From positions 1 to 64,000 of the IMG/VR virus record IMGVR_UViG_3300009695_000004: a DNA stretch of 64,000 nt. One strand, given 5' to 3'. The notes below the pieces were generated by a model. It searched no databases, was not told the origin of the DNA, and saw nothing but the letters and a program-made list of their open reading frames with translations. This document shows positions 142 through 63,278 of the stretch, in pieces; the stretch's first letter is position 1, and every line of letters begins with the position of its first letter. The DNA comes from a virus. The position numbers and the translations under genes are program-made.

Positions 142-160
142 CGCCCTATAATCAAATTGT
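142..160 (-). promoter_or_regulatory. degenerate copy of phage promoter-like motif
   Basis: Sense strand reads ACAATTTGATTATAGGGCG. It ends 18 nt before the ATG at 123, the same spacing as the strong copies. Confidence 0.3.
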
Positions 161-194
161 TCATCAACTCGACATATAAAAGCTAACATTTATT

Positions 195-743
195 CTATGA
201 TTTTATGTACCATCGACCTTCTAGAATCTCTTTTGAAGATACTACATTACCCTCGTTATCCTTAATCTGTTTCCAAAGATTTATGTTTGGAATGTATTCA
301 TATGTAATTTCATTACAATTACTGTATATAATTTCACCATTCTCATATGCTTGTATTGCTTCTAAAAATGGGATTTCCTTATCTTTTTCTCTAATTGTAA
401 ATGGTGACATGGTCAATATGTTCTCCATAAGAATTTCATTAACTACATATTCAATACCATCTTTATCCAATATAAATTCATTAAGTTGAAGTTGTCCACT
501 TTCAATCATTGCTACAATTTGAGAACCTTTATATGCTGGGATAACTTCTACCTCTGAAGCTACTTCATCTTTAAAAGCACCCATTACAGATTCCTCAATG
601 CATACATCGCAACTTACCGTACAATTAGTTGTTAATCCCCAATATTTAGGACAATCCTTACTGTCTTGCAGAAACTTAATCATTTCATCTTTATCCATAC
701 CTTTCGTTACCTCTTGAAATTCTTTAGTACCAATAACTTTCAT
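195..743 (-). CDS. hypothetical protein (182 aa)
   Basis: ORF track. GAGGAGG lies 9 nt upstream of the ATG. Contains the Cys cluster CPKYWGLTTNCTVSCDVC. Confidence 0.6.
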   Translation of the reverse strand: MKVIGTKEFQEVTKGMDKDEMIKFLQDSKDCPKYWGLTTNCTVSCDVCIEESVMGAFKDEVASEVEVIPAYKGSQIVAMIESGQLQLNEFILDKDGIEYVVNEILMENILTMSPFTIREKDKEIPFLEAIQAYENGEIIYSNCNEITYEYIPNINLWKQIKDNEGNVVSSKEILEGRWYIKS

Positions 744-996
744 AACTATATTCCTCCTCTATTTCATAAATTTCAACTTCGTCCTCATCTTCATAACTTC
801 CCCAATATGTGAATCCATCCCAACTACTTGTATAAGCTAGAACAAGTCCTTGACCCCAATAAATATGAGATCCATCACAATCTATAAATCCTCCTTTTCT
901 TACAATGGCCTCAACTCGTCCATCTTCATCACAGAATAGAACCTTAACCCCTTCCATTTTTAATAAATCTTCTTTGAATAATCGTTTTCTTTTCAT
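724..996 (-). CDS. hypothetical protein (90 aa)
   Basis: ORF track. AAGGAGG lies 7 nt upstream of the ATG at 996. Confidence 0.55.
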   Translation of the reverse strand: MKRKRLFKEDLLKMEGVKVLFCDEDGRVEAIVRKGGFIDCDGSHIYWGQGLVLAYTSSWDGFTYWGSYEDEDEVEIYEIEEEYSYESYWY

Positions 997-1028
997 TCCT
1001 CTACCTCCTTAACTTATTTTATATTCTA

Positions 1029-1057
1029 ATTGTAACTTATTACTTTTGATTTGTCAA
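1029..1057 (-). promoter_or_regulatory. sigma-A-like promoter containing the phage motif in its spacer
   Basis: Sense strand is TTGACA, then the 17-nt spacer AATCAAAAGTAATAAGT, then TACAAT. The motif copy is ACAAATCAAAAGTAATAAG. Confidence 0.55.
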
Positions 1058-1081
1058 CAACCTAACGTAAATTCTTTTTCA

Positions 1082-1173: not shown

Positions 1174-1186
1174 TGGAGGTCTTATT

Positions 1187-8198: not shown

Positions 8199-9203
8199 TT
8201 AACCTGTCAAAATATCATCTAATTGTTGCTTCATTTTTTGTTTTTTAAATTCATAATATTGTTCAGGAGTATTATTACCATACTTATATATCAAATGAAA
8301 CTCTTTATGGATATCTTCTGATAAACATACTCCTAGTCCATATTTGTAATGCAATTTTAAGCATTCTTTATTTATCCTATGAATCTCCAACTCTGTATAA
8401 CAATTCATTTCACTATGTATAGGCAATACTAATTGGGCAATTGTTTCTTGCAATATATCACTAAACCCATAGAGATGATGTATGATGGTGCTATTTATTC
8501 CTGTAATATCACATTTATAATTATATTTTTTTAAACTATCTTGTTTCCAAACAGAGATTTTGGTTCTTAGATGTTCCGCAAGAGAACTTATACCACCTTT
8601 CCAATTGAAATTATTTTCTCCTTTATTTTCTAAATTAGCACATTTACTGCATCCATGCCCTCTGAATACACTATCCCATGTAGTTTCCCATTCATAATTA
8701 TCTATTTTACATTTGAATAAAAGCTTTTCTCTAGCATTTACATATCTTTTACTCAGTAGCTCTATATTTGGATTGATCTCTTTTAATTTTTGTTTAACTT
8801 CTTCGAGGCTCAATGTTATTGTATTCGCACAACTTGGGCATCCATGTCCACTTCTAAGATGGTCGTAAGTAGAAGACCATTTATATTCATCTTTCAAACA
8901 CTTACATAATAATTTATAATCAACTCCTTTATAAATAGTGTCCACTATTTCAATGTTGGGATTAATTTCAAACATATTTTCTTTAACTTGAGTAATATTA
9001 ATTTTGGGACGCCCTGCACATTTAGGACATCCTTTCCCTTTACTTAAATTAGAATAATTAGCATCCCATTCATATGCGTCTATCCTGCATTTACATTTTA
9101 ATTTTGTTGAGTTATTTATATATATTCCATTTAGAATTTCTATATTAGGACTGATAATCTCTATTCTTCTTTTGACTTCGTCTAATGTCAGTCTCTTTAA
9201 CAT
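8199..9203 (-). CDS. free-standing HNH-like homing endonuclease with three tandem Zn-ribbon modules
   Basis: Three repeats of about 70 aa end in GCPKCAG, GCPSCAN and GCSKCAN. C-terminal IHHLYGF...IHKEFH is HNH-like. The ATG at 9203 sits 2 nt after the helicase stop with AGGTG upstream; the track start is GTG 9212. Confidence 0.55.
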   Translation of the reverse strand: MLKRLTLDEVKRRIEIISPNIEILNGIYINNSTKLKCKCRIDAYEWDANYSNLSKGKGCPKCAGRPKINITQVKENMFEINPNIEIVDTIYKGVDYKLLCKCLKDEYKWSSTYDHLRSGHGCPSCANTITLSLEEVKQKLKEINPNIELLSKRYVNAREKLLFKCKIDNYEWETTWDSVFRGHGCSKCANLENKGENNFNWKGGISSLAEHLRTKISVWKQDSLKKYNYKCDITGINSTIIHHLYGFSDILQETIAQLVLPIHSEMNCYTELEIHRINKECLKLHYKYGLGVCLSEDIHKEFHLIYKYGNNTPEQYYEFKKQKMKQQLDDILTG

Positions 9204-9204: not shown

Positions 9205-10767
9205 CTATACACCTATTCTAATTCTTTTTGGGTAACAGTACGCTACCTCAGAAAAAGTCCCAAGACTACCTATGAATTTATAGAGCATAGCAATTCCAGT
9301 ATCGTTTGAACTTGATCCATTTCTTGTCTTTTCAAAGAAAACAGTCCTGTATGTAGCATCTGTCTCTGGAGTGTAATCTTCTTTCACCCATTTATTTCCA
9401 ATAAGTTTTCTTTGAAATGGATGACAATAAAACTTTTTATTTCCAGAATCGAGTTCCTCAAGAAATGTTGGACGAATTAGAGTCAGGCTCTCTAAAATTT
9501 CTTTCACTTGTTTACTTTGAGAAATGACTGATGCATTTAAAAACAATACATTGTTTAATCCTTCTGCTAATTGAATGTTTGCTAATCCTATAAGATTATA
9601 TTTTTTACATAGAGTATCTAAAGTCCTTGAATCCTTTATAAGTCTAAGGTGATTATTATCTCCTGCTCCTATATCCAACTCACTTTTAAAAGTATCATAA
9701 GCTAGTACATCAAATCCTTCTGTGAGAGCATATTTCCTAACTTTTTTCTTTACTATAGAGATGTCAGCATCACAAATTTGTACGAACTTAAAACTTTTTG
9801 AAAACTTTTCATTCCATACTTTCTGTGCTTTTTTAATCATCTCTCTATCTTCAAGTGTCAATTCTCCTTTATTTTTTAACTTTTTCTTACTTACTTTATA
9901 GTATTTGAAGTATTTCACAAGAATAAGCATCAAGAATTGCATTTTAAATACACTAGACCTTTGTTCGTTTGAGATAATTATTATTTTTCTTCCTCTAAAT
10001 TGAAGTCCCATTAATATCGTGGTCATCATAGTTGTCTTACCCGAACTTGAAAATCCACCTAACATATTTAGTGATTGGGGCATGAGTCCTCCGATTTCAT
10101 TACTCATATAAGAAAACCCCTTCATATTCTCTCCATCTTCTGATTCTCCAAGTATATCAAAAGGAACTCCCGACTCCAATCCTTCTTGTAATCCCTCTAA
10201 ATATTCATCTGTTATCTCTAAATCTCCTTCTTCCAAGACCTTCGTACTATTACCTGTAGAAAACTCATTTATCCTTTGCATATACCACTCAACAACAGAT
10301 TCACTGTCCATTTTTCTAAACAATTTTAAAGGAATTATCTCTTTGCCATCACAATTAATTGGTTTTAATAAATTCATTCCTAAATCATAAAGCTTTAAGA
10401 TTACATTTTCTCTATCCAATACATCAAGATATGCTTCTGCGTTTTTATCATTCATAATATCAATAACGTCTTGAATTGATTGCCATCCGCCTCTTTGTTC
10501 ATATCCATTAGTTACAACTTCTCCACATTCTGAGAAAATTGTAACATCATCTATTACATTAAAATTCTTTTTACGAATATTATTAGCTATTTCAAAGTAG
10601 AATTTGCCATCTTGAGTAATAAAATCAGTTGATTTTAAATTAACTTCATCAAGAGTTAAAATATCTTTAAAAATTATTCCGACAATATTACCCTCGTGCA
10701 TTGCTCTGTTTTCTAATAATTCTTTTGGATATCTTTCTGTGACACCTGTGATAAATATATCATCCAA
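9205..10767 (-). CDS. dnaB: replicative DNA helicase (DnaB-like)
   Basis: Walker A GGFSSSGKTTMMT with a RecA-like C-terminal domain. TTG start with GAGGAGGG upstream. Confidence 0.8.
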   Translation of the reverse strand: MDDIFITGVTERYPKELLENRAMHEGNIVGIIFKDILTLDEVNLKSTDFITQDGKFYFEIANNIRKKNFNVIDDVTIFSECGEVVTNGYEQRGGWQSIQDVIDIMNDKNAEAYLDVLDRENVILKLYDLGMNLLKPINCDGKEIIPLKLFRKMDSESVVEWYMQRINEFSTGNSTKVLEEGDLEITDEYLEGLQEGLESGVPFDILGESEDGENMKGFSYMSNEIGGLMPQSLNMLGGFSSSGKTTMMTTILMGLQFRGRKIIIISNEQRSSVFKMQFLMLILVKYFKYYKVSKKKLKNKGELTLEDREMIKKAQKVWNEKFSKSFKFVQICDADISIVKKKVRKYALTEGFDVLAYDTFKSELDIGAGDNNHLRLIKDSRTLDTLCKKYNLIGLANIQLAEGLNNVLFLNASVISQSKQVKEILESLTLIRPTFLEELDSGNKKFYCHPFQRKLIGNKWVKEDYTPETDATYRTVFFEKTRNGSSSNDTGIAMLYKFIGSLGTFSEVAYCYPKRIRIGV

Positions 10768-13783: not shown

Positions 13784-13812
13784 ATTATACTATATTACTT
13801 TCGTATTGTCAA
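13784..13812 (-). promoter_or_regulatory. sigma-A consensus promoter with phage motif in spacer
   Basis: Sense strand is TTGACA, the 17-nt spacer ATACGAAAGTAATATAG, then TATAAT. Confidence 0.6.
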
Positions 13813-18134: not shown

Positions 18135-19091
18135 TTACTCCTTTCCTATCATAGAAATAAAATCTTCTTCAGATATAATTGGAACTCCTAAACTCTTAGC
18201 TTTCTGATTTTTGCTTGATGGAGAATTAACGTCATTATTTATAAGATATTCTTCAAATAAATATTTTTGTGGCGCAAATTCTCCAAAATATTTTATTTCC
18301 GCTTTTAATCTAGATGCAATAGCATTTTCCTTATTTTTAAAACTTCCTAAAGTGATACTTTTTTTATTATATTTTATTTGGGAAATCCATTTGTTTTTAA
18401 TATCACTCCAATACACCCCTGTTATTCCGCTTTTATTATTTTTAAATAGATTTCTATTCATGAGATTTTGTTGACGAGTTGATTTACGTAGATTTTCTTT
18501 TTTATTATTTAATGGGTTTTTATCTATGTGGTCTATTTGAAATTTAGTATTAGTATAATTATCAAGTCCTAAAATAACATAATGTAAACTTATAAATCTA
18601 CTACATTCATCAATGTATACCACATACCCATCTTCGTTTAAATGCCATTTATATTTTTTAATTTTATCAATGTCTTCTAAATCGGCTGTTGCCGAAGCTA
18701 TTTTATTAGAATATACATCACGTATAATTATTTCTATAAATTGTTCATTTTCAATGATTTCATTTTTATCATATTTAGTAATTTTTAATACACACTCAAA
18801 TTTATCAAATTGACCTCTATGTTTTGCACACAAATATGTATCTATCTTCTTTACATATGTTACTCTATTATCACCATCACATATATTACATAAGTGTTTA
18901 ACTTTATTGTAGTTATGACTTTTTAATTCTAATAATTTAGACGTTATTAAATGATTATTAATACTTTTTAAATTTCTTAAAATTGTATTTGAAGAACATT
19001 GATATTTTTTCGCTAAAGTTAAACTATTATGTTCAAAAGATAAAAAATCATCTTCCAATTTTTTCAAATCAATAATAATTTTTCTAGACAT
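18135..19091 (-). CDS. HNH (HNH_3) homing endonuclease with AP2 DNA-binding domain
   Basis: HNH motif QIDHIDKNPLNNKKENLRKSTRQQN. AP2 domain SGITGVYWSDIKNKWISQIKYNKKSITLGSF. Abuts the ligase gene. Confidence 0.75.
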   Translation of the reverse strand: MSRKIIIDLKKLEDDFLSFEHNSLTLAKKYQCSSNTILRNLKSINNHLITSKLLELKSHNYNKVKHLCNICDGDNRVTYVKKIDTYLCAKHRGQFDKFECVLKITKYDKNEIIENEQFIEIIIRDVYSNKIASATADLEDIDKIKKYKWHLNEDGYVVYIDECSRFISLHYVILGLDNYTNTKFQIDHIDKNPLNNKKENLRKSTRQQNLMNRNLFKNNKSGITGVYWSDIKNKWISQIKYNKKSITLGSFKNKENAIASRLKAEIKYFGEFAPQKYLFEEYLINNDVNSPSSKNQKAKSLGVPIISEEDFISMIGKE

Positions 19092-23401: not shown

Positions 23402-23420
23402 TATATTATATTTGATTTGT
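23402..23420 (-). promoter_or_regulatory. phage promoter-like motif (perfect consensus)
   Basis: Sense strand ACAAATCAAATATAATATA, 27 nt before ATG 23374. Confidence 0.6.
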
Positions 23421-32033: not shown

Positions 32034-32543
32034 CTATAATTGATAATATGATTTAACTAATTTTTTATCTGCAATAAATGCTTTATTGTGTGTGGTAATT
32101 CCACTCTTCATATATTTTATATACAATTCATTAATATCGTCTTCTGGCGATTCAATTAAAGTAAAATGGTTTGTAACTCTTGTTAGTTCTTTCAATATAG
32201 TATTTTCTTTTTTCATTTCATTTATCATCATTTCATTTTGTTTCAATTGCTTTCTAAGTTCTTCTATTTCCTTTTTAAGATTGGTTGAATTATCAATATT
32301 ATTTTTGATTTCTGTTGTAGTATCTTTAGCAGTGTTTAATTCACTTGCAAATGCTGCAATTAAGTTATCTATTGCTTCTTCCCTTATTCCCTCTAATTCT
32401 CCATTAATAATCTTTTGAGATAGTATCTTGGCTTTAATGACATCATCGGTACGCTGAAGGGTGTTTACAATTTTATTGATTTTTATTTGTTGATTGTCTT
32501 CTGATTCGACAATTAAACTATACAAGTATTCTCGCTTATCCAT
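32034..32543 (-). CDS. hypothetical coiled-coil protein (169 aa)
   Basis: ORF track; lies between the two recombinase-like genes. Confidence 0.55.
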   Translation of the reverse strand: MDKREYLYSLIVESEDNQQIKINKIVNTLQRTDDVIKAKILSQKIINGELEGIREEAIDNLIAAFASELNTAKDTTTEIKNNIDNSTNLKKEIEELRKQLKQNEMMINEMKKENTILKELTRVTNHFTLIESPEDDINELYIKYMKSGITTHNKAFIADKKLVKSYYQL

Positions 32544-32633
32544 TTTATTCTCTCCTTTTTATTTTGCTTATTGATTTTATATTACTACAATTCTAATGTA
32601 ATGTAAATACCAAAATTTGGTTTGTTGAATGAT

Positions 32634-34090: not shown

Positions 34091-34315
34091 TCATTCTATA
34101 TAGTATGTTGTCCCACATATATTATATTTCATTTCTAAACACGTTGCCGTAAGTTCTCCTACTATATAAGTACCATCGGATTTCATAACATATCGGTCTC
34201 CCTCTAATTCTTCTATGATAGTATCATTTATTTCCTCTGCGTCTTCTGTTGTGCATCCTAACACCAGTAAATCCATTAATATTGATTCTTCTGTTAACTT
34301 GTAAATTTTAATCAT
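34091..34315 (-). CDS. hypothetical protein (74 aa)
   Basis: ORF track; a weak hairpin (AGGAA/TTCCT, 34064-34081) plus T-run lies downstream. Confidence 0.5.
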   Translation of the reverse strand: MIKIYKLTEESILMDLLVLGCTTEDAEEINDTIIEELEGDRYVMKSDGTYIVGELTATCLEMKYNICGTTYYIE

Positions 34316-34450
34316 TTTTTAATACCCCCATTTATAAACTTTTGTAGATTTTAACCATTATTATAATTTAACTATGCGCTTGACCATATATAATATCAAA
34401 CCTTCTTTCTTTTTACTTCATAAGTATACGAACAACCGTTCTTTAAATTT

Positions 34451-34479
34451 AGTATACTACCGGATAATTGAATTGTCAA
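34451..34479 (-). promoter_or_regulatory. sigma-A consensus promoter
   Basis: Sense strand is TTGACA, the 17-nt spacer ATTCAATTATCCGGTAG, then TATACT. A roughly 130-nt leader runs to ATG 34315. Confidence 0.55.
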
Positions 34480-42395: not shown

Positions 42396-42785
42396 TTTCT
42401 TCATTCCTTTCACTGGTTTATTTCTTAGCTGATTATTATATTCTTATTTTAGAATTTAAAGAAGGGTAATTTTAGTAATGTCTCAGTTACCCTTCTTATT
42501 ATATTCTATTTGTTCACACCTTTTTATATCTATTATTTCCTTTACTGCTTATGCCAAACGGAATACTATTGAAGTGGTATTTGTTTTTAGTGCTCCAACC
42601 TACCTAATTTATAGTTGATATAAAAAGCTTTATTCAGTTTTCAAATAACTACTTTTAGCTATAAATCGTAGAGCCCATAAACTACGATATCACAGAATGT
42701 AGACACACATTACAGATAAGTGGAACTTTAAGGAGTTCAACCCATAAGGCACGATTTATTTACTAACCTTATGTATTTATTATAA
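42396..42785 (-). ncRNA. long structured 5' leader or stand-alone RNA ending in a strong hairpin
   Basis: Lies downstream of two tandem leftward promoter motifs. No ORF is present. Hairpins are ATCGTAG/CTACGAT, GAACT/AGTTC, and an 11-bp stem at 42459-42497. Confidence 0.35.
42459..42497. terminator. 11-bp perfect-stem hairpin (terminator/attenuator candidate)
   Basis: AAGAAGGGTAA (42459-42469) pairs with TTACCCTTCTT (42487-42497), 17-nt loop. The flanks are only moderately U-rich. Confidence 0.5.
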
Positions 42786-42804
42786 CATATTATATTAGGT
42801 TTGT
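42786..42804 (-). promoter_or_regulatory. phage promoter-like motif (leftward arm entry)
   Basis: Sense strand ACAAACCTAATATAATATG. Confidence 0.5.
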
Positions 42805-42815
42805 ATATAGTTTTA

Positions 42816-42834
42816 TATAATATATTTGATTTAT
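42816..42834 (-). promoter_or_regulatory. phage promoter-like motif (leftward arm entry, second copy)
   Basis: Sense strand ATAAATCAAATATATTATA. Confidence 0.45.
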
Positions 42835-42844
42835 AATTGTTAAC

Positions 42845-43310
42845 AATTTATGAACGTTATCAGGTAATTGATCCAATGTCGGAATTATTAGTTATGCATT
42901 AGAATTTCATTGAATGTATAAGTTATTGTATATCAATGTATAATTGTATGTGTTTATGCATAGAATTTTATAGAATGGTATGTTTAAAGGGTTTATGATA
43001 TCGATTGTGTTAAATATACATTAGTATACATTGATGAATGTATATAGCTGATTGTTTATGATATAGTTGAATTGTAGAATTTTATTAGATACGATAAATT
43101 GATATGCATTATTAGTTTATTGTATGGATATTATTGGGTATTGATTGTTAATATATATTAGTGATATAGTAGGAATTAAATCAGGGATATGAGGATATAA
43201 TCATATGACTTGTATATACATGTATAGAGTTGTATAGTGTTTCATATAGTACATTTTACTTTTGACACTAAAAAGTTTATAAGTGAATGATCATTCATTT
43301 TAGATATACA
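42845..43310. other. C-depleted (top strand) repeat-rich tract
   Basis: I counted 10 C in 42901-43200. Degenerate direct repeats are present, e.g. TTATGCATTAGAATTTCATTGAATG (42893) versus TTATGCATAGAATTTTATAGAATGG (42953). No ORFs. Confidence 0.7.
43284..43297. repeat. 14-bp perfect palindrome TGAATGATCATTCA
   Basis: Read directly from the sequence. Confidence 0.7.
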
Positions 43311-43320
43311 ATATTACTTT

Positions 43321-43352
43321 ACTAACTAAATAGTTTACTAACTAAATAGTTT
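43321..43352. repeat. perfect 16-bp tandem direct repeat ACTAACTAAATAGTTT x2
   Basis: Read directly: copies at 43321-43336 and 43337-43352. Confidence 0.85.
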
Positions 43353-43403
43353 GATTGTCAAAGTAATAATGTCATATTGATTATATCGTTATTGCCAGTA
43401 AAG

Positions 43404-43570
43404 TTATCCACAGGCTAATAAGTTATCCACATTTAATCCACAAGTATTTGTAGTTTGTTCATTAATTGTTCATTAGTTATCCACAGATATTGTATGGTTA
43501 TCCACAGTTTTATGTAAGTTATAAACAAGTTATCCACAGATTATATGACTTATCCACAGAGTTATCCACA
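43404..43570 (+). promoter_or_regulatory. DnaA-box cluster (7 perfect TTATCCACA plus 1 TAATCCACA, all same orientation)
   Basis: Perfect boxes at 43404-12, 43423-31, 43477-85, 43498-506, 43530-38, 43550-58 and 43562-70. The variant is at 43434-42. Confidence 0.85.
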
Positions 43571-43959
43571 GGTAAAATACTCATAAATGAAAAAATGCAT
43601 CTTGTATAATTGAACAAAGTAAACATTTTACTATCATATAGTTATTGAAACTACATTACGTAAATATCAATGTCATAATTACCCTGTCCACATATTCACC
43701 TACTAAACATAGATATTTTACCCTAAACACTAGATTAAACATATATTTCATTGAATGTTTTTAGTGAATATGACACAAATATAGTCATATCAACGTACTA
43801 CAGGGTATTAAAACAAGCCTATTTTGCAGCAAACTAGTGAATTAGCCATATAAATTACAAGGATCATAGACCAGGGGCGTGTATTACGTTCAGCCAGTTC
43901 CGGGGTTTTTGAAATTTGGGCGTGCCTCACTAACGTCATTACCCTATCAAAAAATCACT

Positions 43960-45000
43960 TCCGTAACAATAATTTAAACATTATTTTCATAAATCCATCC
44001 TCCAATTTAAACATATTTTATAAATTCAAAACCTCAAATTCCTACAAAAATTCCTCAAATCCTAACCTTCCATCGCAAATAATACGAATCTAACAATCAA
44101 TTTCCTTCCTCTTTCTTCCAATATCTCACAAATTCATCTCAACAAAATTCAATTCCGTTATCCCCTATCGTAAACACTATCGTATTACCTTCAAAATCCC
44201 TTCCCAAATCTCATCAAAACTCACATAATATCACCTAATATATCCCATATCTCACTCAATCTCATACAATTCTACCTCATTCTCATCTGATCTCATAACG
44301 GTCAATATACTAAAACAATCCCAAACCCTATCACGGGGAGTACATTTACTTCAGAAATTATATCTTCCATATATACCCTACTACCTTCTAAAATTCACTA
44401 CACTAAATTCTCTATCTCACAGCAACAAAATCATATCCTTTTCATTAAGTTTCACAACCAATACTATCATACCTATTCGCAACTTCTAATCAACCTATAC
44501 TAAAATAAGCCACTTTATTAGTACAATTTCATCACACTGCTATTGGAGGGGCATACACTTACATCTCAACTACAATTCTCCATACCCTACCTATACCTTC
44601 CTAAAAAACATCACATCTTCTATCCCCCCTACTCCAACTCAACAAAACAACACCAATTTCCTCTCAAATTTTCACTAACCCAATTCTACCTATTCCATAG
44701 AACTATTTAATCCTGCTCTAAATAACCTACTTTTTTAGGACAATTCTATATCCTGAACCTGTCTCTACTAATATACTACATTCGGCAGCAATAATAAATC
44801 TACATCCTAATATCCTCTGGACTATATCTAAATAACATAAAATTCTTCCTAACAAAATAACTCCATTCTCATACCCTACACTAAATCAATCAAAATCACC
44901 TCTAAAAACGATTCTACCTCCTAGCCATACAAATATACTCCTAACCCTACTTTCGTTTAACCTTGCTCTAAATATAGCTACGTTTATAAGGATATTCTTT
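43960..45000. other. G-depleted (top strand) tract of degenerate 200-250-bp repeats
   Basis: I counted roughly 45 G in about 1040 nt, with abundant C. Several 60-nt lines have no G at all. Recurrent units include CTCTAAATAACCTACTTTTTTAGGACAATTC (44716) versus CTCTAAATATAGCTACGTTTATAAGGATATTC (44966), and ATACCCTAC at 44375, 44583 and 44870. No ORFs. Confidence 0.8.
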
Positions 45001-45022: not shown

Positions 45023-45041
45023 ACAATCAGAATATAATATA
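45023..45041 (+). promoter_or_regulatory. phage promoter-like motif (rightward arm entry)
   Basis: ACAATCAGAATATAATATA. Confidence 0.5.
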
Positions 45042-45057
45042 TATTTATGAATACCTA

Positions 45058-45086
45058 TTGACAATACGAATATAATATAATATACT
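45058..45086 (+). promoter_or_regulatory. sigma-A consensus promoter with phage motif in spacer
   Basis: TTGACA, the 17-nt spacer ATACGAATATAATATAA, then TATACT. A roughly 190-nt leader runs to the rep ATG. Confidence 0.6.
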
Positions 45087-48391: not shown

Positions 48392-49120
48392 TTGGAGGAA
48401 AGATATGGTGTAATATATAAAATTACAAATATCCTTAATGACAAAGTTTATATAGGACAAACAATTAAGAGAGGCGGATTTGACTCTAGATATCATGGAA
48501 GCGTCGAGAAGACACACAACTCTCACCTAAGAAGGTCTATAGAAAAATATGGCAAAGAAAATTTTGAAATAGATAAAGAATTATACATAGCTTATTCTAA
48601 AGATGAACTCAACAATAAAGAGTTAGAATTTATAAAATTATATAAAAGTAATGATTATAATTATGGATATAACATAAAAGTTGGAGGAGACAACATAGGC
48701 AAAATTGAAGGTAAAAATAGAGCTGATATATTATTAAGACAAGGGAGCTGCATTATATGTAGGACTACCTATGAGATATTTTTATCCTTTACGGATGCGA
48801 GTGAAAAATATAATATAGGAACTGAACAAATAAGGAAACAATGCAATGGGCTCACTAATTTTAGAAAAGAAACTTTTTATAACAAAGAACTTAATACGTT
48901 TTTAGAATTCGAATATTATGATCATGTCAAAAAGGGAATTAGAAAACCAGTCATTTGTTGTAATACTAAGGAAATATTTAAAAATTGCAAATGTATTTCT
49001 GAAAAATATGATTTCATAATTAGAGAAAGTCTTAGGAGTGCATTATATCGTAGTCAAAAATATGAAAAGAATGGACTTGAATTTATGTATTTATATCATT
49101 GGGTGATTGAAAACTATTAG
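48392..49120 (+). CDS. GIY-YIG homing endonuclease
   Basis: N-terminal YGVIYKITNILNDKVYIGQT...R...YGKENF...E is GIY-YIG. The TTG at 48392 lies 9 nt after GGAGGA. The track N-terminal extension from 48299 overlaps the promoter motif and another ORF. Confidence 0.75.
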   Translation: MEERYGVIYKITNILNDKVYIGQTIKRGGFDSRYHGSVEKTHNSHLRRSIEKYGKENFEIDKELYIAYSKDELNNKELEFIKLYKSNDYNYGYNIKVGGDNIGKIEGKNRADILLRQGSCIICRTTYEIFLSFTDASEKYNIGTEQIRKQCNGLTNFRKETFYNKELNTFLEFEYYDHVKKGIRKPVICCNTKEIFKNCKCISEKYDFIIRESLRSALYRSQKYEKNGLEFMYLYHWVIENY

Positions 49121-53636: not shown

Positions 53637-54299
53637 ATGGAAGAAACTAAATTATTATTGAAAAAATCTGGGCGATTATGGGTTAATGAATATTATAATA
53701 AAGAAGATTATATTTTATTAAAAATGTTCAGAAAAGATTTAACAGAATCTTATGATGTATTAATTGATAAATGTGATTTTGAAAAGGTTTCACAATGTCA
53801 ATGGTATGGATTTATGAATAGGAAAAATTCACACTTAAAGAATATAATACAAATTTTATGGATGGTAGAAATAGAAGGTAAAAGAATTGTATATAACATA
53901 TATCAATGGATATTAGATACAAAATATAAAGATATAATGATTGATCATAAAAATACAAATAGGTTGGATAATAGGAGAAATAATTTAAGAATGTCTAATC
54001 CTGTTGAGAACGCTATAAATCAAACATATAACGGCTATAACTATGATAAAAAAACTAAAAGATATTTGTCTAGGATTAAATGTTTTGATAAACAGGTTAA
54101 TATAGGTAGATATGATACTGAATTGGAAGCCGAAATAATATATTTAAAAGCAAATATATTACTAGGATATGATAAAATCTCACAATATCATAACGATAGG
54201 ATTAATGAACTAGGTATAAATTTAACAGAGGAAGATTATAAAAATAAATACATAACCAAACTTATAAATTTAAAAAATTTATCAACAAATCAAATATAA
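53637..54299 (+). CDS. HNH (HNH_3) homing endonuclease with AP2 domain
   Basis: MIDHKNTNRLDNRRNNLRMSN (HNH) and GYNYDKKTKRYLSRIKCFDKQVNIGRYDT (AP2). The ATG at 53637 follows AAAGGAGGA. The track start is 53583. Confidence 0.75.
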   Translation: MEETKLLLKKSGRLWVNEYYNKEDYILLKMFRKDLTESYDVLIDKCDFEKVSQCQWYGFMNRKNSHLKNIIQILWMVEIEGKRIVYNIYQWILDTKYKDIMIDHKNTNRLDNRRNNLRMSNPVENAINQTYNGYNYDKKTKRYLSRIKCFDKQVNIGRYDTELEAEIIYLKANILLGYDKISQYHNDRINELGINLTEEDYKNKYITKLINLKNLSTNQI

Positions 54300-55789: not shown

Positions 55790-56422
55790 ATGAAAGCAAA
55801 TTGGGATATATTTTTCGAACCAGAGGTAAGAGATTTAACAAAATTACATTTACCTGACCCCGAAACATTAGATTATTATGAAAGAATCTTAAATAGGGAA
55901 ATATCTTGGAATTGTGAAATTGATGATAGTTTAATTGACTTTTCATTGATGATAATTAAATGGAATAGACAAGATAAAGGTATACCTATTGAAGATAGAA
56001 AACCTATAAAAGTATTGATAAACTCTGATGGTGGCGAGCTTGTAGCAGTTATGAATTTCATAAATACAATGCAGCTTTCTAAAACACCTGTATGGACAAT
56101 AGGTATGGGTAAAACATATTCCGCAGGTGGATTAATGTTATTGGCTGGCACTAAAGGACATAGATACATATTTCAAGATACTACTGCTTTAATTCATGCA
56201 GGATCTACAGGAGCTATGGGAAATACCGACAAAGTATTGGATAACTTTGAATTTACACAAAAACAAGAAAAAAGAGTTAAGGAATTCGTAGTTGCCAATA
56301 CAAAGATAACTGATAAATTATTTACAAAGAATTATAGAAAAGATTGGTGGTTAATGTCCGAGGAAATAATTTCATTGGGTGTGGCCGACAAGATTATAAC
56401 TGATTTGGACGAAATATTTTAA
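55790..56422 (+). CDS. clpP: ClpP-family serine protease
   Basis: INSDGGELVAVMNFINTM, GKTYSAGGLMLLAG (Ser), ALIHAGS (His) and LGVADKII (Asp region). Confidence 0.8.
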   Translation: MKANWDIFFEPEVRDLTKLHLPDPETLDYYERILNREISWNCEIDDSLIDFSLMIIKWNRQDKGIPIEDRKPIKVLINSDGGELVAVMNFINTMQLSKTPVWTIGMGKTYSAGGLMLLAGTKGHRYIFQDTTALIHAGSTGAMGNTDKVLDNFEFTQKQEKRVKEFVVANTKITDKLFTKNYRKDWWLMSEEIISLGVADKIITDLDEIF

Positions 56423-57247: not shown

Positions 57248-58517
57248 AAAATTTAAGAGGTAGTTTAGGCATATATTTATATGTTTATCTACAGCCTTCC
57301 ATGATTGCAAGTGGAAGTTTATAATAGTGCGAAAACACTTTAAATATGGAGATAGCAGAAGCAGTCTCCTTCTGTACCTAGAGACAATAAATACATAGGT
57401 TAGTAGGCTTGGTTAGAGTCTCAGAACTAATCTGCTTCTATGGGTGTTAGTGTAACGATAGCACACCTTCAAAGGATACGTAGAACACGTTTGACTCGTG
57501 TACATCCTAATAATATTATTTTAAAAGAAGATTTTCTCATAGAGCGTGAGAAATTAAAAATAAAGAAAGCTCAATTATAAGATTTAGTTGTAGAACGCAA
57601 CTAAGTAAAAATAAAGAAAGTTCAATAGAAGAATGTTTTATAGCAGACGTAAGGTCAAACAAAAGACTGTTGAGGATCGGAAATGTTCCCGACACGCTAT
57701 CTATATTGATAGTTAACAGGTATGTAGGAAGTGCAGCCCTACCAACAGTCTAATTCTATGTAAGCTATATACCTATTCGCACCTAGAAGCCTGTGCGAGG
57801 ACGATGATAAGGGGAAACATCTAAAACCCTATAGCAAAAAATCTATAATACTAGGCAATATAGGTTTAATCTTATTTATATTACAAGGTGTATCCAGCCT
57901 TCGAAAATGGAAACTTTAAATTCATGCCATACACCAAGGGGCTTTGTACCTTGGCTATTTAGTCCGATAAGGACAAAAGTTGCACGAGTAATGACGATAG
58001 TTAACAAAGTGTAATGAAGGTAATACAACAGTTCGGAGATTACCTTTGAGACGGGAACTCCTTAAAAACGCCTAGGGAATCGCAGCGCAAATAGGAAAGG
58101 TCTAAAGTGTTTTGCGATAAACATACACTTATAGATTTATCTCACTTCTTTAAATAACAGTTCTCTCAAGCCTCTGTTTATAATGCTATTATAATTAAGC
58201 GTAACAATGAGAGCCAGAAATTTATATTTTGATAGCGACATAAATCATGTGGTTTATGTGGTTTAGGAGGAGGATTATTTTCTAATATTAACTTAAAGTT
58301 AGTGTATCTGTTGAGATACTAGCCTTTGTTACTTTATGCGATAAATTAAAGTAAATAGTATGTCGCTACTCGATATGCGACTAATAAAAGGTCGAGTTCA
58401 AATGTTGTAATCTATGGAGAGTCCCTACCATATAGTGGGAAACTTTAAACTCAAGTTCTTTAAATTTAGTTATAAATTCTTTATATATGAAGACTTTCGT
58501 ACTATTGTTAAAGAACT

Positions 58518-58862: not shown

Positions 58863-58937
58863 GCTGATATGACTCAACGGTAGAGTAGCACACTTGTAAT
58901 GTGCAAGTTGTAGGTTCAAATCCTATTGTCAGCTCCA
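58863..58937 (+). tRNA. trnT: tRNA-Thr (anticodon UGU) with encoded CCA
   Basis: Folded manually. Acceptor GCTGATA/TGTCAGC (one G-U), D stem ACTC/GAGT, anticodon stem GCACA/TGTGC, loop CTTGTAA, T stem GTAGG/CCTAT, T loop TTCAAAT, discriminator T, then CCA. Confidence 0.9.
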
Positions 58938-59087: not shown

Positions 59088-59963
59088 GTGGGTGTAGCAT
59101 CTGTAAGTAAAAAGTGTCCGTTATGTGGCGACAATAAAAAATTTGAGTCTTATTACAGCCATAGAGATAACTCAAAAGAACATGGAAGAGACGTAATCTG
59201 CAAGATTTGCAGTAAAACCATGGCGTCTTCTAAAGAAGGAATGATGAGATATTGTAGTACCAATTCAAGAAGGTTTGATGAAGTTCTTTGGAAGTGGGCT
59301 GAAGATAAAATAACATTGAAACTTAAAGAAGATATTGAACACAACTCATTGAGTGAAGATAAGAAGAAAAAGATACTCAATGAAAAAATAGCGAGTGCTT
59401 ATTTTGGTCAGATGAATCAAGTTAATTGGTATGCGTTTATTCCGGATAGTTCGGTGGACATTAAAGAGCTAAAAGCTGATTTAGAGGATGAAGAATACGA
59501 CAATACTCCTATTAAGAAGAGAAAAGAACGAAAAACATATTCTTTAAAATGGGCAGGAGATTTTACAGCAGAAGAAATTATTTATTTAGAGGATCAATAT
59601 AAGAAAGCACAAGATCAATATGATCTTAAGACTGGAAATGATTTTGAGTATGCTATGAATGTTGCAGTTGCTGGATTGATAGTTCGTAAAAATCGAAATG
59701 GATATTTAAATGGAGAAAATGGAGCGGATAAAAGATATAAAGAGGCGGTAGCAATTTATGACTCTTTGTGTACAAGTTCTAAATTTAACCAGAAGACACG
59801 CTCGACCAACGATACCGCTGGCTTAGGGTCTCTAAGTGAAATTGTAGCAAAATTAGAACAAACAGGATTTCTTCAGAAGAAAATTATATTTGAAGATGAT
59901 AGTATTGAGAAGGTTAACGCCGATTTACGTCATGTTTTAAGCAGCGTAGGTGGTGACAGTTAA
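59088..59963 (+). CDS. putative terminase small subunit / DNA-binding protein with N-terminal Zn ribbon
   Basis: Assigned by its position directly upstream of, and overlapping, the large terminase gene. Contains CPLCGD...CKIC. GTG start after AAAGGAGAG. Confidence 0.4.
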   Translation: MGVASVSKKCPLCGDNKKFESYYSHRDNSKEHGRDVICKICSKTMASSKEGMMRYCSTNSRRFDEVLWKWAEDKITLKLKEDIEHNSLSEDKKKKILNEKIASAYFGQMNQVNWYAFIPDSSVDIKELKADLEDEEYDNTPIKKRKERKTYSLKWAGDFTAEEIIYLEDQYKKAQDQYDLKTGNDFEYAMNVAVAGLIVRKNRNGYLNGENGADKRYKEAVAIYDSLCTSSKFNQKTRSTNDTAGLGSLSEIVAKLEQTGFLQKKIIFEDDSIEKVNADLRHVLSSVGGDS

Positions 59964-61720
59964 TGGCAGTAAACTATTCTAAAAAGAAACAAAATAAACA
60001 GTTTAGAACAGATATTAATGGAGATAGTCCAGATAGCCACAACGTTGTCAAGCAGTCTAGCCTTGAAAATCCTGAAGAATGGGAAAAGCAAATTTTATTC
60101 TGGAGAAGTCATTTAGATATTTTCATAGAAGATTATTTTTCTACTCCTGAAAGACCAGTTGAACTTAAAGATGTTCAGAAAGTTGTTGCAAGGAATTGTG
60201 GAAATTGTACGAATGTAATTGATATAGAATCACGTTCTTATGGTAAGACATGGAAGATGGCGTGGATATTGAGTGCCCTGAGCATTTTATACAGCGACAA
60301 TCGTATTTTGGTAGTTTCTGGTAATGTTAGCCAAGCCATGCTCGTAGCAAATTATATTAGAGATATTGCGAATGTTAATGTCAATTTTGCTAGGGAAATA
60401 CACCTACCTGTGAGAATTGCGAAGGATGGAGCTACAGTTAAATTTAAAAATAATTCTACAATAATATGCAAAGCCATGGAAAAAGATGGTAAGAACATAG
60501 TTGGGTTGCGGGAAAAAATAATTTATATTGACGAAAGTTGGCTTATAAAATCTACTGTAATTCAGAAGGCTTTAAGACCAATGTTGTCATACACCCGTGA
60601 TGTTGCAAGAGAACAAAATTTTGAAGATTTTGATTCGAAATTATTTGAAACATCATCAGCATATTTGAAAACATGTGATTTATATAAAAGATTTACAGAT
60701 AATGTTAACGACATGAAAAAAGGTAATACGAATAAGTTTGCATGTGCTTTAAATTATGAATCGGGAATTAGAACTGGTATTATTAAAAAAACATTTGTGG
60801 AAGAAGAAAAAAGCAATATGCTTGAAAGTTTATTTAGCATGGAATATGGTGCGATTTTCATTGGGAATCAGAATGGTTCATTCTTTCCATATGACCTTAC
60901 AGAGCCTTGTAGGAATATGAAATTTATGGAATTAAAGCAACCTGCTCATTCAAAATCAAGATATATACTTTCATTAGATGTAGCCACTTCTGAAAAAGAC
61001 GGCGCAGATAATGCTAGTTTATTGGTGACAAAATTCATTGAAAAAAGTGATGGAACTTTTCATAAATATGCAGTCCACATGAAAACATTTCACGGATATG
61101 CTCAAGAAAAACTTGCAGAAGAAGTAAGAAAAACTTGTATTAGGTTTCCTAACATAGAGTCAACTATTATTGACGGAAATGCTATCGGCGAAGGAGTCGT
61201 AAGTTTACTAAATTTTCCTTATGTGTGTGACAATGTAGAGTATAAGCCTTTTGTAAGAGATGATATTGGGTACACTGGTACTAATGCAATTCCCATTGTT
61301 AGATTTTTTCGTGGAAGTAATGATATCAATAATAGAATGGTTACAAAAACTAAATTGTATTTTGAAAACGGAACATTGCATCTACCTATTCCCTCTTCCG
61401 AGGCAAGAAGATTACAAGATGATACTTTCGATGGTTCAAATAAAAATGATAAAGCAAAACCAAGAGAGTTATTAATTGAAGAAATAACAATGTACTTTGA
61501 AGCTGATAAATTACAATTTGAACTTTCTACGATAATTCCTAAACTTACAACAAAGGGATCAACTTTTTATGAAACGGCTTTGACTACACAACATAATGAT
61601 AGATGTTCTTCCCTTTGGATGGCTATGGATTATATTTCACAGTTAGAGGAGAAGAACAGAGAAAGTTATAATAATAATACTGAAGGTATGTGTATGGGCA
61701 TAGCAATGACTTGGAATTAA
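59963..61720 (+). CDS. terL: terminase large subunit
   Basis: Walker A-like SRSYGKTWKMAW, Walker B IIYIDES, and a C-terminal nuclease-like LDVATSEKDGADNASLLV. ATG overlaps the upstream stop (TAATG). Confidence 0.75.
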   Translation: MAVNYSKKKQNKQFRTDINGDSPDSHNVVKQSSLENPEEWEKQILFWRSHLDIFIEDYFSTPERPVELKDVQKVVARNCGNCTNVIDIESRSYGKTWKMAWILSALSILYSDNRILVVSGNVSQAMLVANYIRDIANVNVNFAREIHLPVRIAKDGATVKFKNNSTIICKAMEKDGKNIVGLREKIIYIDESWLIKSTVIQKALRPMLSYTRDVAREQNFEDFDSKLFETSSAYLKTCDLYKRFTDNVNDMKKGNTNKFACALNYESGIRTGIIKKTFVEEEKSNMLESLFSMEYGAIFIGNQNGSFFPYDLTEPCRNMKFMELKQPAHSKSRYILSLDVATSEKDGADNASLLVTKFIEKSDGTFHKYAVHMKTFHGYAQEKLAEEVRKTCIRFPNIESTIIDGNAIGEGVVSLLNFPYVCDNVEYKPFVRDDIGYTGTNAIPIVRFFRGSNDINNRMVTKTKLYFENGTLHLPIPSSEARRLQDDTFDGSNKNDKAKPRELLIEEITMYFEADKLQFELSTIIPKLTTKGSTFYETALTTQHNDRCSSLWMAMDYISQLEEKNRESYNNNTEGMCMGIAMTWN

Positions 61721-61751
61721 TAAAACAACCTTATAATTAGGAGGTGACTAT

Positions 61752-63260
61752 ATGTCAAGAAGTAAAAAGAAAACAGCAATTGCACAGAAACAAGTGAAAC
61801 ATATTCAAGTAGTAATCCCAGAATATTCTCTTGGATTCGATATGAAATCATATCAAGGAGATGGGGGTAAACCTATTACTGTATATGAAAATAGATATTC
61901 ATCTAATGGTGATGTTAAAGGTTACAATGTCGATCAGATTTTAAAAAATAAACAAGATAATATATATAAAATATTTGAACTTTGTAATTATTATGTTGAT
62001 GCAGACCCAATATATGGAAACGCAATAAAAAAGATATTAACTCCATTCTCATTATCTGGATGGAAACTTATGGGTGCATCTGAAAAAATAAAGCAAAAGT
62101 ATATGGATTATTTTGAATCAGTGGGGATTTTCGATTTGCTTAGGGATTCATTTTATGATCTGAATCTATATGAAAATTGTTATATTTATGATAGGGGTAA
62201 CTGGTTTGATATATTCCCTCCTCATAGAATCAGAGTTAGTTCTATAGGTATTAATGGTGAACCTGTACTAGAATATAAGATTGCAGAATTTGGAAATAGA
62301 AATTATACAATTGCAAAAGAAGGATTTATAAATACCCTATTGAAACAATATGAGGGATACCCTCCTGAAATACTCGATGGAATAAAAATGGGTACTTTAT
62401 GGGTGCAATTGTCACCTGATAATTGTTATTCCTTGCAAGGTGTAAAATCTCGTTGGGAAAAATATTGTATTCCATTTATAAGTTCATGTCTAAAATCTTT
62501 TTCAAATAAAAATCTAATTGGAGATTTTGAAAACAGCCAATTATCAGCAGGAATGAAGCCATTTCTACATGTTAAGGTAGGCTCAGAACGTGTTATGCCT
62601 TCTCCTTCTCCAGATATCTTAAAAGATGTTGGACTGATATTTCGTAATGCAATTAATGGTTATCCATTAGCAATAACTTCACACGTGGTTTCTGCAAATT
62701 GGGTTTCAACCGATACTAAAAATATGTTTGATAAAGCAAAATATGACGAAGTTAATACTTCTATTTTGGCGAGTTGTGGTTTAAGTGCAATAATTGTAAC
62801 AGGAGATTCCACTGGTTCTAACTTCGCAAGTGCAACAATTAATGTATCTGTTGCTGAAAAAAAAATTTCTGCTAATCAAAAGAATGTTGCAGAATTTCTA
62901 AAGAAGATTATGAAAAAAAGAGCAATAGAATGGAGAATCGCAGAAAATAAAGTTCCAACTTTTGTATTTGACAAAGTATCAATTCAAGATGATCAAACTA
63001 TGAAAGATGAAGTATTGAAATTATTTCAAAGTGGACTTACCTCATATGCTACAACTATTAATACTCTCGGCTATGACTACGACCAAGAAAAAGAACGCAA
63101 GAAAAAAGAAAAGTCAGATGGAGATAAAGAAATATTTGAAGTGCCAGCATCTTTTAATACTCAAGCAAAAGGAGATAATGGTGGAGGTGCACCAGAAGTT
63201 CCGGGTGCGAACAAGGATTCAAGCGCCACAGGAAAACAACCAAAGCCTAGTACAGCTTGA
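61752..63260 (+). CDS. putative portal protein
   Basis: 502 aa, immediately after terL. Low-complexity basic/Gly-rich C-terminal tail. Assigned by synteny and size only. Confidence 0.5.
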   Translation: MSRSKKKTAIAQKQVKHIQVVIPEYSLGFDMKSYQGDGGKPITVYENRYSSNGDVKGYNVDQILKNKQDNIYKIFELCNYYVDADPIYGNAIKKILTPFSLSGWKLMGASEKIKQKYMDYFESVGIFDLLRDSFYDLNLYENCYIYDRGNWFDIFPPHRIRVSSIGINGEPVLEYKIAEFGNRNYTIAKEGFINTLLKQYEGYPPEILDGIKMGTLWVQLSPDNCYSLQGVKSRWEKYCIPFISSCLKSFSNKNLIGDFENSQLSAGMKPFLHVKVGSERVMPSPSPDILKDVGLIFRNAINGYPLAITSHVVSANWVSTDTKNMFDKAKYDEVNTSILASCGLSAIIVTGDSTGSNFASATINVSVAEKKISANQKNVAEFLKKIMKKRAIEWRIAENKVPTFVFDKVSIQDDQTMKDEVLKLFQSGLTSYATTINTLGYDYDQEKERKKKEKSDGDKEIFEVPASFNTQAKGDNGGGAPEVPGANKDSSATGKQPKPSTA

Positions 63261-63278
63261 TAAATCAAATATAATATC
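63260..63278 (+). promoter_or_regulatory. phage promoter-like motif
   Basis: ATAAATCAAATATAATATC, 18 nt before ATG 63297. Confidence 0.45.

Follow-up and report, generated by a model that had tools for sequence, protein, structure and literature searches.

The 64,000-nt stretch of DNA analysed here, called the window, comprises positions 1 to 64,000 of IMG/VR record IMGVR_UViG_3300009695_000004 and comes from an uncultured metagenomic phage of about 29% G+C content, a distant relative of SPbeta and of Clostridium botulinum phage D-1873. Replication genes are located in the left arm. The right arm encodes a YonO-type RNA polymerase of 873 amino acids (aa), which is 61% identical to that of D-1873, its closest match, and 51% identical to that of SPbeta. 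Past the polymerase gene the layout is SPbeta-like insofar as it contains a small open reading frame (ORF), an exonuclease gene, a non-coding stretch, a yonG-like gene, and the terminase and portal genes. Both arms contain many copies of a 19-nt motif, which is the subject of this analysis.

The motif is far more frequent than expected by chance. The pattern ACAAWTCAAATATAATATA, allowing up to three mismatches, has 38 matches in the window, whereas 1.18 would be expected and none of 100 shuffles gave more than 4. We iterated a weight matrix from the best copies and applied it at a threshold of 15 bits, which gave 50 raw positions that reduce to 48 non-overlapping copies, compared with 0.4 in Markov-1 controls; an earlier annotation made from the letters alone, here called the sequence-only reading, had claimed more than 40 copies, in agreement with this count. 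A naive de novo k-mer search was too noisy for such AT-rich DNA, so unseeded expectation maximization was run on gene-upstream regions instead, and it returned the identical consensus, ACAAwTCAAATATAATATA. Perfect copies are found at 23402, 46645, 52018, 53506 and 59052, exactly where the sequence-only reading had placed them. The information content drops to background just outside positions 1-19, giving the motif sharp edges, and position-by-position conservation of the aligned copies reveals no conserved -35 element upstream. The best-conserved positions are T13, A14, A17, T18, C2 and C7, whereas a -10 hexamer would occupy positions 11-16. The motif is asymmetric, agreeing with its own reverse complement at 6 of 19 positions. 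When the 19-mer was masked and the intergenic DNA searched for a second repeated motif, only the Shine-Dalgarno (SD) sequence emerged, and the window therefore offers no other candidate operator.

Copies follow the direction of transcription of the arm in which they lie in 47 of 48 cases (binomial p = 3e-13). The minus strand has 34 of them, to the left of approximately 43 kb, and the plus strand has 13, to the right of 45 kb, close to the numbers first noticed (about 30 and 13, respectively), and the switch between strands coincides with the GC-skew switch. The scan of both strands that had been proposed as a check thus gave a strong orientation bias, and the outcome that would have spoken for chance, namely equal orientations and intragenic copies at the background rate, was not observed: 42 of the 48 copies are centred in non-coding DNA, which makes up 20% of the window (p = 2e-23). 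The statement that no copy is in the wrong orientation needs correction, as one strong anti-oriented copy (19.1 bits) is found at 32587-32605 on the plus strand. Overall there is about one box per 1.3 kb, with the packaging region included, and, as had been proposed, the motif precedes genes of many kinds: replication genes, the yonO homologue, the exonuclease gene and the terminase and portal genes.

The copies differ in their relation to promoters and genes. In class A the ACA that begins the box completes a TTGACA hexamer, the remainder of the box serves as the 17-nt spacer, and this leads to a -10 hexamer; in class B the box abuts the SD sequence. The individual copies, with matrix scores and with distances given to the next start codon, are as follows.

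1015-1033, minus strand: class B box abutting the SD, 18 nt to start; its T+ACAAT forms the -10 of the promoter at 1036; 19.3 bits
1036-1054, minus strand: class A box, TTGACA-N17-TACAAT; 20.1 bits
3055-3073, minus strand: class B box, 14 nt to start, overlapping the upstream stop codon; 21.7 bits
12465-12483, minus strand: class B box, 18 nt to start, overlapping the upstream stop codon; 24.1 bits
13726-13744, minus strand: class B box, 25 nt to start, 65 nt downstream of 13791; 20.2 bits
13791-13809, minus strand: class A box, TTGACA-N17-TATAAT; 19.6 bits
15016-15034, minus strand: class B box, TTG present with no second -10, 14 nt to start; 21.6 bits
15895-15913, minus strand: class C box, intergenic, 74 nt to start; 17.4 bits
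17808-17826, minus strand: class B box, 18 nt to start; 21.6 bits
17879-17897, minus strand: class A box, TTGACA-N17-TATACT; 16.1 bits
17903-17921, minus strand: class C box immediately upstream of the 17879 promoter; 19.6 bits
23189-23207, minus strand: class B box, SD starting at +1, 14 nt to start; 17.0 bits
23402-23420, minus strand: perfect class B box, the only copy with TTGACA 17 nt upstream of the internal TATAAT; 23.9 bits
23851-23869, minus strand: class C box, 38 nt to start; 19.0 bits
25411-25429, minus strand: class B box, 9 nt to start; 17.7 bits
26098-26116, minus strand: class B box, 16 nt to start, overlapping the upstream stop codon; 20.9 bits
26909-26927, minus strand: class A box, TTGACA-N17-TATATT; 19.9 bits
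27311-27329, minus strand: class C box, 53 nt to start; 19.7 bits
29281-29299, minus strand: box within the upstream ORF, at its 3' end, 14 nt ahead of the next start; 18.2 bits
29301-29319, minus strand: box in tandem with 29281; 16.9 bits
30986-31004, minus strand: class A box, TTGACA-N17-TAAACT, 74 nt downstream of the repressor-like gene described below; 21.4 bits
32295-32313, minus strand: weak, doubtful copy inside the 169-aa gene, starting AGAA and missing the conserved C2; 17.6 bits
32587-32605, plus strand: sole strong anti-oriented copy, between the integrase gene and the 169-aa gene; 19.1 bits
34118-34136, minus strand: doubtful copy in the 3' end of the 74-aa ORF, starting AGAA and missing C2 and C7; 18.1 bits
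34492-34510, minus strand: weak copy just upstream of the LexA-box promoter; 15.2 bits
36578-36596, minus strand: class C box; 19.3 bits
37978-37996, minus strand: class C box overlapping the upstream stop codon; 17.8 bits
39002-39020, minus strand: class C box; 17.7 bits
40472-40490, minus strand: class C box; 17.1 bits
40705-40723, minus strand: class B box, 20 nt to start; 15.3 bits
42154-42172, minus strand: class C box; 17.9 bits
42495-42513, minus strand: class C box at the head of the left arm; 19.0 bits
42786-42804, minus strand: box at the head of the left arm with TATAAT 17 nt past its ACA, the -35 being TATACA; 21.6 bits
42816-42834, minus strand: box in tandem with 42786; 17.7 bits
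43057-43075, minus strand: weak copy in the divergent region; 15.7 bits
45023-45041, plus strand: box at the head of the right arm, upstream of the 45061 promoter; 19.7 bits
45061-45079, plus strand: class A box, TTGACA-N17-TATACT; 21.7 bits
46591-46609, plus strand: class A box, TTGACA-N17-TATAGT; 22.3 bits
46645-46663, plus strand: perfect box, 54 nt downstream of the 46591 promoter copy; 24.2 bits
48352-48370, plus strand: class B box, 21 nt to the start of a GIY-YIG-like gene; 23.7 bits
49122-49140, plus strand: class B box, 24 nt before the YonO-like RNA polymerase gene; 21.9 bits
51944-51962, plus strand: box following the RNA polymerase gene; 22.0 bits
52018-52036, plus strand: perfect class B box, 26 nt to the start of a 480-aa hydrolase-like gene; 24.2 bits
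53506-53524, plus strand: perfect box starting directly after the upstream stop codon; 24.2 bits
54285-54303, plus strand: box whose positions 13-15 form the TAA stop of the upstream gene, 26 nt ahead of the yonK-like and exonuclease genes; 22.2 bits
59052-59070, plus strand: perfect class B box, 17 nt before the yonG-like/terminase/portal block; 23.9 bits
60450-60468, plus strand: weak copy inside the terminase gene, probably due to chance; 15.3 bits
63260-63278, plus strand: class B box overlapping the portal stop codon, 18 nt to the next start; 19.1 bits

TTG precedes 9 of the 48 copies, and in 7 of these a hexamer matching TATAAT at four or more of six positions follows exactly 17 nt past TTGACA (TACAAT, TATAAT, TATACT twice, TATATT, TAAACT and TATAGT), so that an initial estimate of about ten TTG copies with a second -10 at 17 nt was nearly right for the TTG and too high for the complete promoter. 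These class A copies are separated from the following start codon by 39-203 nt, and nothing else on the coding strand of the right arm matches a sigma-70-type promoter better. About 17 copies are instead wedged between the stop codon of the upstream gene and the SD sequence of the next, ending 9-27 nt before the start; some of the stop codons share a base with motif position 1 or use a TAA at motif positions 13-15. The 14-27 nt originally given for this distance needs correction, since only these copies are so close to a start codon and the rest lie 34-660 nt away. By reading of the sequences, no more than 5 nt separate the motif end from the SD in about two thirds of the SD-abutting copies. 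Operator-type copies, in which the box occupies a promoter, are often paired with a copy 54-71 nt downstream, as at 13791/13726 (65 nt), 17879/17808 (71 nt) and 46591/46645 (54 nt).

These promoters raise the possibility that all copies are host sigma-A promoters of one phage family, the class B copies being -10-only promoters that may be served by a phage activator or appropriator reading ACAAWTCAAA. The consensus contains a perfect TATAAT, the seven TTGACA-N17-TAnnnT promoters are beyond doubt, and copy 23402 has TTGACA 17 nt upstream of its internal TATAAT; TATAAT or TATAAA is also commoner in SD-abutting copies (13/18) than in class A copies (3/7), which is a trend only. Canonical -35/-10 spacing of 16-18 nt is nevertheless confined to the seven copies and copy 23402. 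In the 39 copies lacking TTG, the best -35 match averages 2.69 of 6, compared with 2.63 at random intergenic positions (p = 0.41), bearing out the early remark that a -35 at 17 nt is usually missing, and the positions of an extended -10 TG are occupied by AA in the motif. The best-conserved positions are not those of the -10 hexamer. Moreover, a sigma-A start would lie 6-8 nt past the internal hexamer and, given an SD within 5 nt of the motif end, would fall on or inside the SD in most abutting copies. A Pfam screen of 40 ORFs, part of the window, detected no sigma-factor or known appropriator domain among them. We therefore consider it unlikely that sigma-A recognition explains the whole set. 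The length of 19 nt, the asymmetry, the sharp edges, the 39 copies without TTG and the AA in place of TG instead support the proposal in the sequence-only reading of a phage-specific reader beyond what sigma-A needs.

The same placement could be taken to mean that the motif acts in RNA, as a leader or intercistronic element such as a translational enhancer, a processing site or the site of a translational regulator, insofar as it is on the sense strand in 47 of 48 copies and lies directly 5' of the SD in about 17, often filling the gap from stop codon to SD. The class A copies lie upstream of the predicted start, however, so that their own promoters would not transcribe them, and about 19 copies are 34-660 nt from any start codon. 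Copies also cluster in the gene-free divergent region at 42.5-45.1 kb, and the SPbeta counterpart of the motif, discussed below, is a DNA site bound by MrpR (PMC10516654). We regard a role in RNA as very improbable.

A candidate DNA-binding reader is encoded in the left arm, where it lies within a group of genes and control sites that have the features of a lysogeny module.

31078-32016, minus strand: candidate reader, a 312-aa SroF/MrpR/YopR-like integrase-fold protein (sequence and fold matches)
32034-32543, minus strand: 169-aa gene in the sroE/yopQ position, so placed by gene order only, its homology to sroE/yopQ being putative
32634-33527, minus strand: tyrosine integrase gene in the sroD/yopP position (PF00589, E 5e-37)
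34091-34315, minus strand: 74-aa ORF, a candidate Sar-like antirepressor, downstream of the LexA-box promoter
34430-34479, minus strand: promoter TTGACA-N17-TATACT (34479-34451) followed by the LexA-type box GAACGGTTGTTC (34441-34430)

The 312-aa protein matches Pfam family PF22822 (MrpR_N_CB) with E 1.6e-4, below the curated cutoff, and is collinear with YopR in BLASTP (E 0.006); hhalign gave E 1.9e-4 over 187 columns with a probability of 48%. An AlphaFold 2 model of the protein has a predicted local distance difference test score (pLDDT) of 87.8. When this was compared with the PDB using Foldseek, the top six matches consisted of YopR (8bj6, 8bpz), SroF bound to DNA (9rd5, template modelling score 0.64), MrpR (8a0a) and SroF with Sar (9rgl), with E from 3e-8 to 4e-7, and in the same listing Cre, the Tn1549 integrase and XerH rank below YopR, SroF and MrpR. 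Among the searches of the PDB, the fold search alone found YopR: PDB sequence searches with the protein and with its family profile gave no YopR match, and tblastn against the phage collection gave no match at all. At the position of the catalytic Arg-I, the candidate family has an invariant Trp140/Ser141 and MrpR has Val137/Ser138, the other catalytic positions not being reliably alignable; the conserved Glu is retained in the candidate family.

Gene order supports the same assignment. The succession of integrase gene, 169-aa gene and SroF-like gene mirrors yopP-yopQ-yopR, and the order integrase, gene of about 165-170 aa and SroF-like gene recurs in two relatives (L047 and L050). The anti-oriented copy at 32587-32605 lies inside this operon, where it coincides in part with a possible promoter on the minus strand, TTTACA-N17-TAATAT; it may serve in autoregulation.

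The LexA-type box at 34441-34430, upstream of the repressor-like gene, is the only GAAC-N4-GTTC in the window. A homologous promoter, with a GAACACACGTTC box and a homologous 78-aa ORF, is present at 8640-8932 of the relative L046, upstream of the gene for a repressor that is 49% identical; the 74-aa and 78-aa products share 38% identity (E 3e-9). A comparison of the 74-aa ORF with YopT gave no similarity. In logic, the LexA-box promoter and small ORF resemble the LexA-controlled Sar of SPbeta and phi3T, by which analogy the ORF is a candidate SOS-controlled antirepressor.

Systems of this kind are known from SPbeta-like phages. MrpR (the same protein as YopR and SroF) is the master repressor of SPbeta, with 10 targets in chromatin affinity purification sequencing (ChAP-seq) and a motif named SPBRE (PMC10516654). 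SPBRE and the phi3T box, Phi3TRE, are long asymmetric boxes scattered over SPbeta-like genomes (PMC10516654; bioRxiv 10.1101/2025.11.27.690993). SroF binds as a monomer and reads 24 of the 26 bp of an asymmetric box that is present in many genomic copies (bioRxiv 10.1101/2025.11.27.690993), which accounts for such boxes being long and asymmetric.

We read SPBRE in the SPBc2 genome as (TAG)ACAAATACAAAWAATATGTATA; the regions upstream of yonP, yonT and yonX have ACAAATACAAATAATATGTATA in common. A genome scan gave 12-14 copies, all co-oriented with the downstream gene and located at exactly the ten ChAP-seq target genes of MrpR. Several of these make up a TAGACA-N17-TATAAT promoter and several directly adjoin the SD (yonX, yopV, yopM); there are also two pairs, spaced by 64 and 68 nt. 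The window box is like SPBRE in its 5' half, ACAAAT.CAAATA, in its polarity and in its kinds of placement, which include the promoter spacer, the SD-abutting site and pairs about 65 nt apart; one SPbeta copy even precedes the yonP-yonO RNA polymerase operon, and both phages encode an integrase-fold repressor downstream of an integrase gene. The 3' halves of the two boxes differ, and the window matrix gives SPBRE sites in SPbeta a top score of 8.8 bits, in gapped form, and fails to single them out whether or not a 1-nt gap is allowed. Our claim is thus one of resemblance and shared architecture, not identity. The repressors too are only about 16-22% identical, and the host lineages differ, the window being of about 29% G+C and from an uncultured metagenomic source. 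Box sequence differs between SroF types, the phi3T box being unrelated in sequence (bioRxiv 10.1101/2025.11.27.690993), so that a mismatch with SPBRE does not exclude membership of the SroF family.

The likeness to phi3T lies in the integrase-fold repressor, which in phi3T is a monomeric clamp on one long asymmetric box and provides the best DNA-bound structural match (9rd5), and in a LexA-type box before a small ORF near the repressor gene. Unlike in phi3T, where the box is CAGTAATTTTATTTTTATTCTTAATG, the box sequence here is unrelated, the small ORF has no detectable similarity to YopT or Sar, and no arbitrium genes were seen in the window.

A second precedent is provided by the repressors of Cluster A mycobacteriophages (L5 gp71 and the TipsytheTRex repressor), each a monomer with more than 20 asymmetric sites oriented with transcription, at the early promoter and in many short intergenic gaps, where elongation is stopped in one orientation only; the repressors are proposed to act on initiation as well as on elongation (PMC9283540). 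The window boxes are like these stoperators in their density, in being asymmetric, in occupying short intergenic gaps and in having a polarity that follows transcription. The Cluster A sites, in contrast, are 13 bp long and GC-rich, and their repressor has a helix-turn-helix (HTH) and a stoperator domain where an integrase fold is found here; no gp71-type repressor with these two domains was detected among the 40 ORFs screened. Cluster A phages also lack an RNA polymerase of their own, unlike the window phage, and the likeness is one of analogy, not membership.

Variants of the box occur in some relatives. The locus L047, with a repressor 54% identical, has 11 co-oriented variants, ACAATTnAAAAATAATATA, in 19 kb. 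Two further loci (L029 and L019), with YonO polymerases 68-72% identical, contain copies of ACAATTCAAnnATAATATT, including TTGACA and TAGACA forms, some of them just before and after the polymerase gene. On four short contigs (P0004-P0007) the repressor gene is followed by a single promoter-like copy whose 3' half varies between contigs, which is no more than suggestive of co-variation between box and repressor. No near-identical relatives turned up when 18-20 kb were compared by Megablast with the phage and plasmid collections.

The motif could also be read as the promoter of the single-chain YonO-type RNA polymerase, acting alone or with a phage factor, with a T7-like start at or just past its 3' end. 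A long, asymmetric, polar and sharply bounded 19-mer resembles the promoters of single-polymerase phages, and the motif shares with T7-type 23-nt promoters and the T4 late promoter (TATAAATA) that it is compact, polar, conserved and placed before many genes near the ribosome-binding site. About 17 copies abut the SD, which a start at the motif end would explain better than a sigma-A start. The best-conserved copies are those of the right arm that lie near and downstream of the polymerase gene, preceding the exonuclease, terminase and portal genes, and the YonO promoter sequence is still undefined (PMC5467207). However, a link between the motif and a polymerase or sigma factor would be hypothetical, unlike for the T7 and T4 late promoters. 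SPbeta YonO affects only 37 late genes and uses one start site, in the yonN-yonK gap (PMC5467207), and this gap has neither SPBRE nor the window motif. By the positions of the primer-extension primers, the start falls within SPBc2 approximately 60330-60573, where neither element has a match, and comparison of the SPbeta P_YONO region and non-coding gap with the window, including the 56.4-59.1 kb stretch, revealed no homology.

All SPBRE-type boxes of SPbeta, furthermore, lie outside the YonO-dependent late cluster, and in the window the genes headed by the motif include replication genes and the polymerase gene itself. In seven cases the motif occupies the untranscribed spacer of a canonical sigma-A promoter. 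D-1873, whose YonO is 61% identical, has no copy of the motif in 42 kb, and the motif is likewise absent from about 30 Bacillus, Paenibacillus and other YonO loci, with variants only in L029, L019 and L047; the motif therefore does not track YonO. We think it quite unlikely that the motif is a YonO promoter. Nor do we give much credence to the wider proposal that the 19-mer is either a promoter of the YonO-type polymerase or a dual element, serving as promoter in lytic growth and as repressor box in lysogeny. A T7-like start would in either case put the SD at the 5' end of about 17 transcripts, an arrangement that the geometry allows and that we nonetheless doubt.

The reading that we favour, as slightly more probable than its negation, is that the motif is the asymmetric box of a putative SroF/MrpR/YopR-type integrase-fold monomeric repressor encoded at 31078-32016 on the minus strand. 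Among the readers named by the sequence-only reading, a global repressor is thus preferred in view of the SroF-like gene in the window; the YonO-like polymerase is not supported, and a phage sigma or appropriator had no counterpart in the domain screen of 40 ORFs. We infer that the 312-aa protein binds the box and that binding would block both initiation and elongation. In this mechanism the box would be the counterpart of SPBRE in SPbeta and of Phi3TRE in phi3T. At 7 or 8 operator copies located in host sigma-A promoters, bound repressor would block initiation. At the approximately 40 other copies, in short gaps between co-transcribed genes and often between a stop codon and the next ribosome-binding site, it would halt RNA polymerase that had escaped or read through, as Cluster A stoperators do; these stoperator-like copies often lie 50-70 nt downstream of an operator copy. 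Together the boxes would silence both arms of the prophage, including the genes for the YonO-type RNA polymerase and for packaging, and release would come from the small antirepressor expressed from the LexA-controlled promoter (34479-34430). A mechanism of operators and stoperators accounts for the asymmetry, the polarity, the intergenic sites, the missing -35, the pairing and the presence of boxes before early and late genes alike. The element would then be an unusually dense, stoperator-like variant of the SPBRE/SroF box system, a description that we hold to be a little better than an even bet.

Several observations weigh against the repressor-box reading. The assignment of the repressor is remote, at 16-22% identity to YopR, with a Pfam match below cutoff and an hhalign probability of 48%. 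The box is not SPBRE, and its likeness, confined to ACAAAT.CAAATA, could partly reflect promoter context and AT-richness. In SPbeta, about 12 boxes are spread over 134 kb and the late operon is free of them, whereas here there are about 48 in 64 kb, packaging genes included, and in L046, despite its repressor being 49% identical, no dense boxes were seen in 21 kb. The internal hexamer is a perfect TATAAT whose conservation is highest in the SD-abutting copies, as if promoter activity had been selected for. The lysogeny/SOS module itself contains two co-oriented copies, at 32295-32313 and 34118-34136; both lack the conserved C2 and may be decayed, non-binding sites. We also know of no SroF-type repressor for which a block of elongation has been shown, and the stoperator role goes beyond precedent in this respect.

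Further features of the window concern its non-coding DNA, possible maintenance functions and mobile genes. The stretch at 56.4-59.0 kb is ORF-poor and of higher GC, and contains the following RNAs just upstream of the packaging genes.

57529-57579, plus strand: 6A RNA
57580-57630, plus strand: 6A RNA in tandem with the preceding one
57665-57750, plus strand: skipping-rope RNA
58863-58937, plus strand: tRNA-Thr(UGU)

Its position recalls the SPbeta non-coding gap that holds the YonO start site. In SPbeta, the yonN-yonK gap has a match to the Rfam DUF3800-VIII RNA (47.5 bits) at 9410-9475 on the minus strand of locus L042, which corresponds to SPBc2 approximately 59409-59474; an unannotated non-coding RNA in this gap is reportedly mentioned by Forrest et al.

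The region at 43100-45000 is an ORF-free divergent region at the GC-skew switch, flanked by copies of the motif at 42495-43075 (minus strand) and 45023-45079 (plus strand), and could be an origin or control region. The only sizeable plus-strand genes of the left arm, at 1187-2434, encode an actin-like ALP/ParM protein (PF17989, E 2e-19) and a 93-aa ORF. The 325-aa plus-strand ORF at 1163-2140 was considered as a YopR homologue on account of its equal length and rejected, having no similarity to YopR and being this actin-like protein. The pair resembles a plasmid-partition module and may point to an extrachromosomal prophage; a TubZ-like gene is present in D-1873.

Homing-endonuclease-like genes are interspersed among the core genes at 48392-49120, 53637-54299, 18135-19091 and 8199-9203. 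These include a weak GIY-YIG match just before yonO, HNH_3 genes after yonO and beside the ligase gene, and a CapR/zinc-finger protein similar to SPbeta YomD. A ClpP-like protease gene is found in the late region at 55790-56422.

If the repressor-box reading is true, the SroF/MrpR integrase-fold repressor system would reach beyond the SPbeta-like phages of Bacillus to a distant, uncultured low-GC lineage, one that is tied through its YonO polymerase to the toxin-converting phages of Clostridium botulinum. It would also mean that an SroF-type repressor runs a genome-wide, polar, stoperator-like silencing with boxes before late genes, a case of convergence insofar as this architecture has so far been known only from the unrelated monomeric repressors of Cluster A mycobacteriophages. 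A defined 19-bp sequence (box ACAATTCAAATATAATATA) and a defined 312-aa protein are now offered for direct tests, and the promoter-overlapping and intergenic sites would form a clean set with which to study how RNA polymerases, a YonO-type enzyme among them, are stopped by a monomeric clamp.

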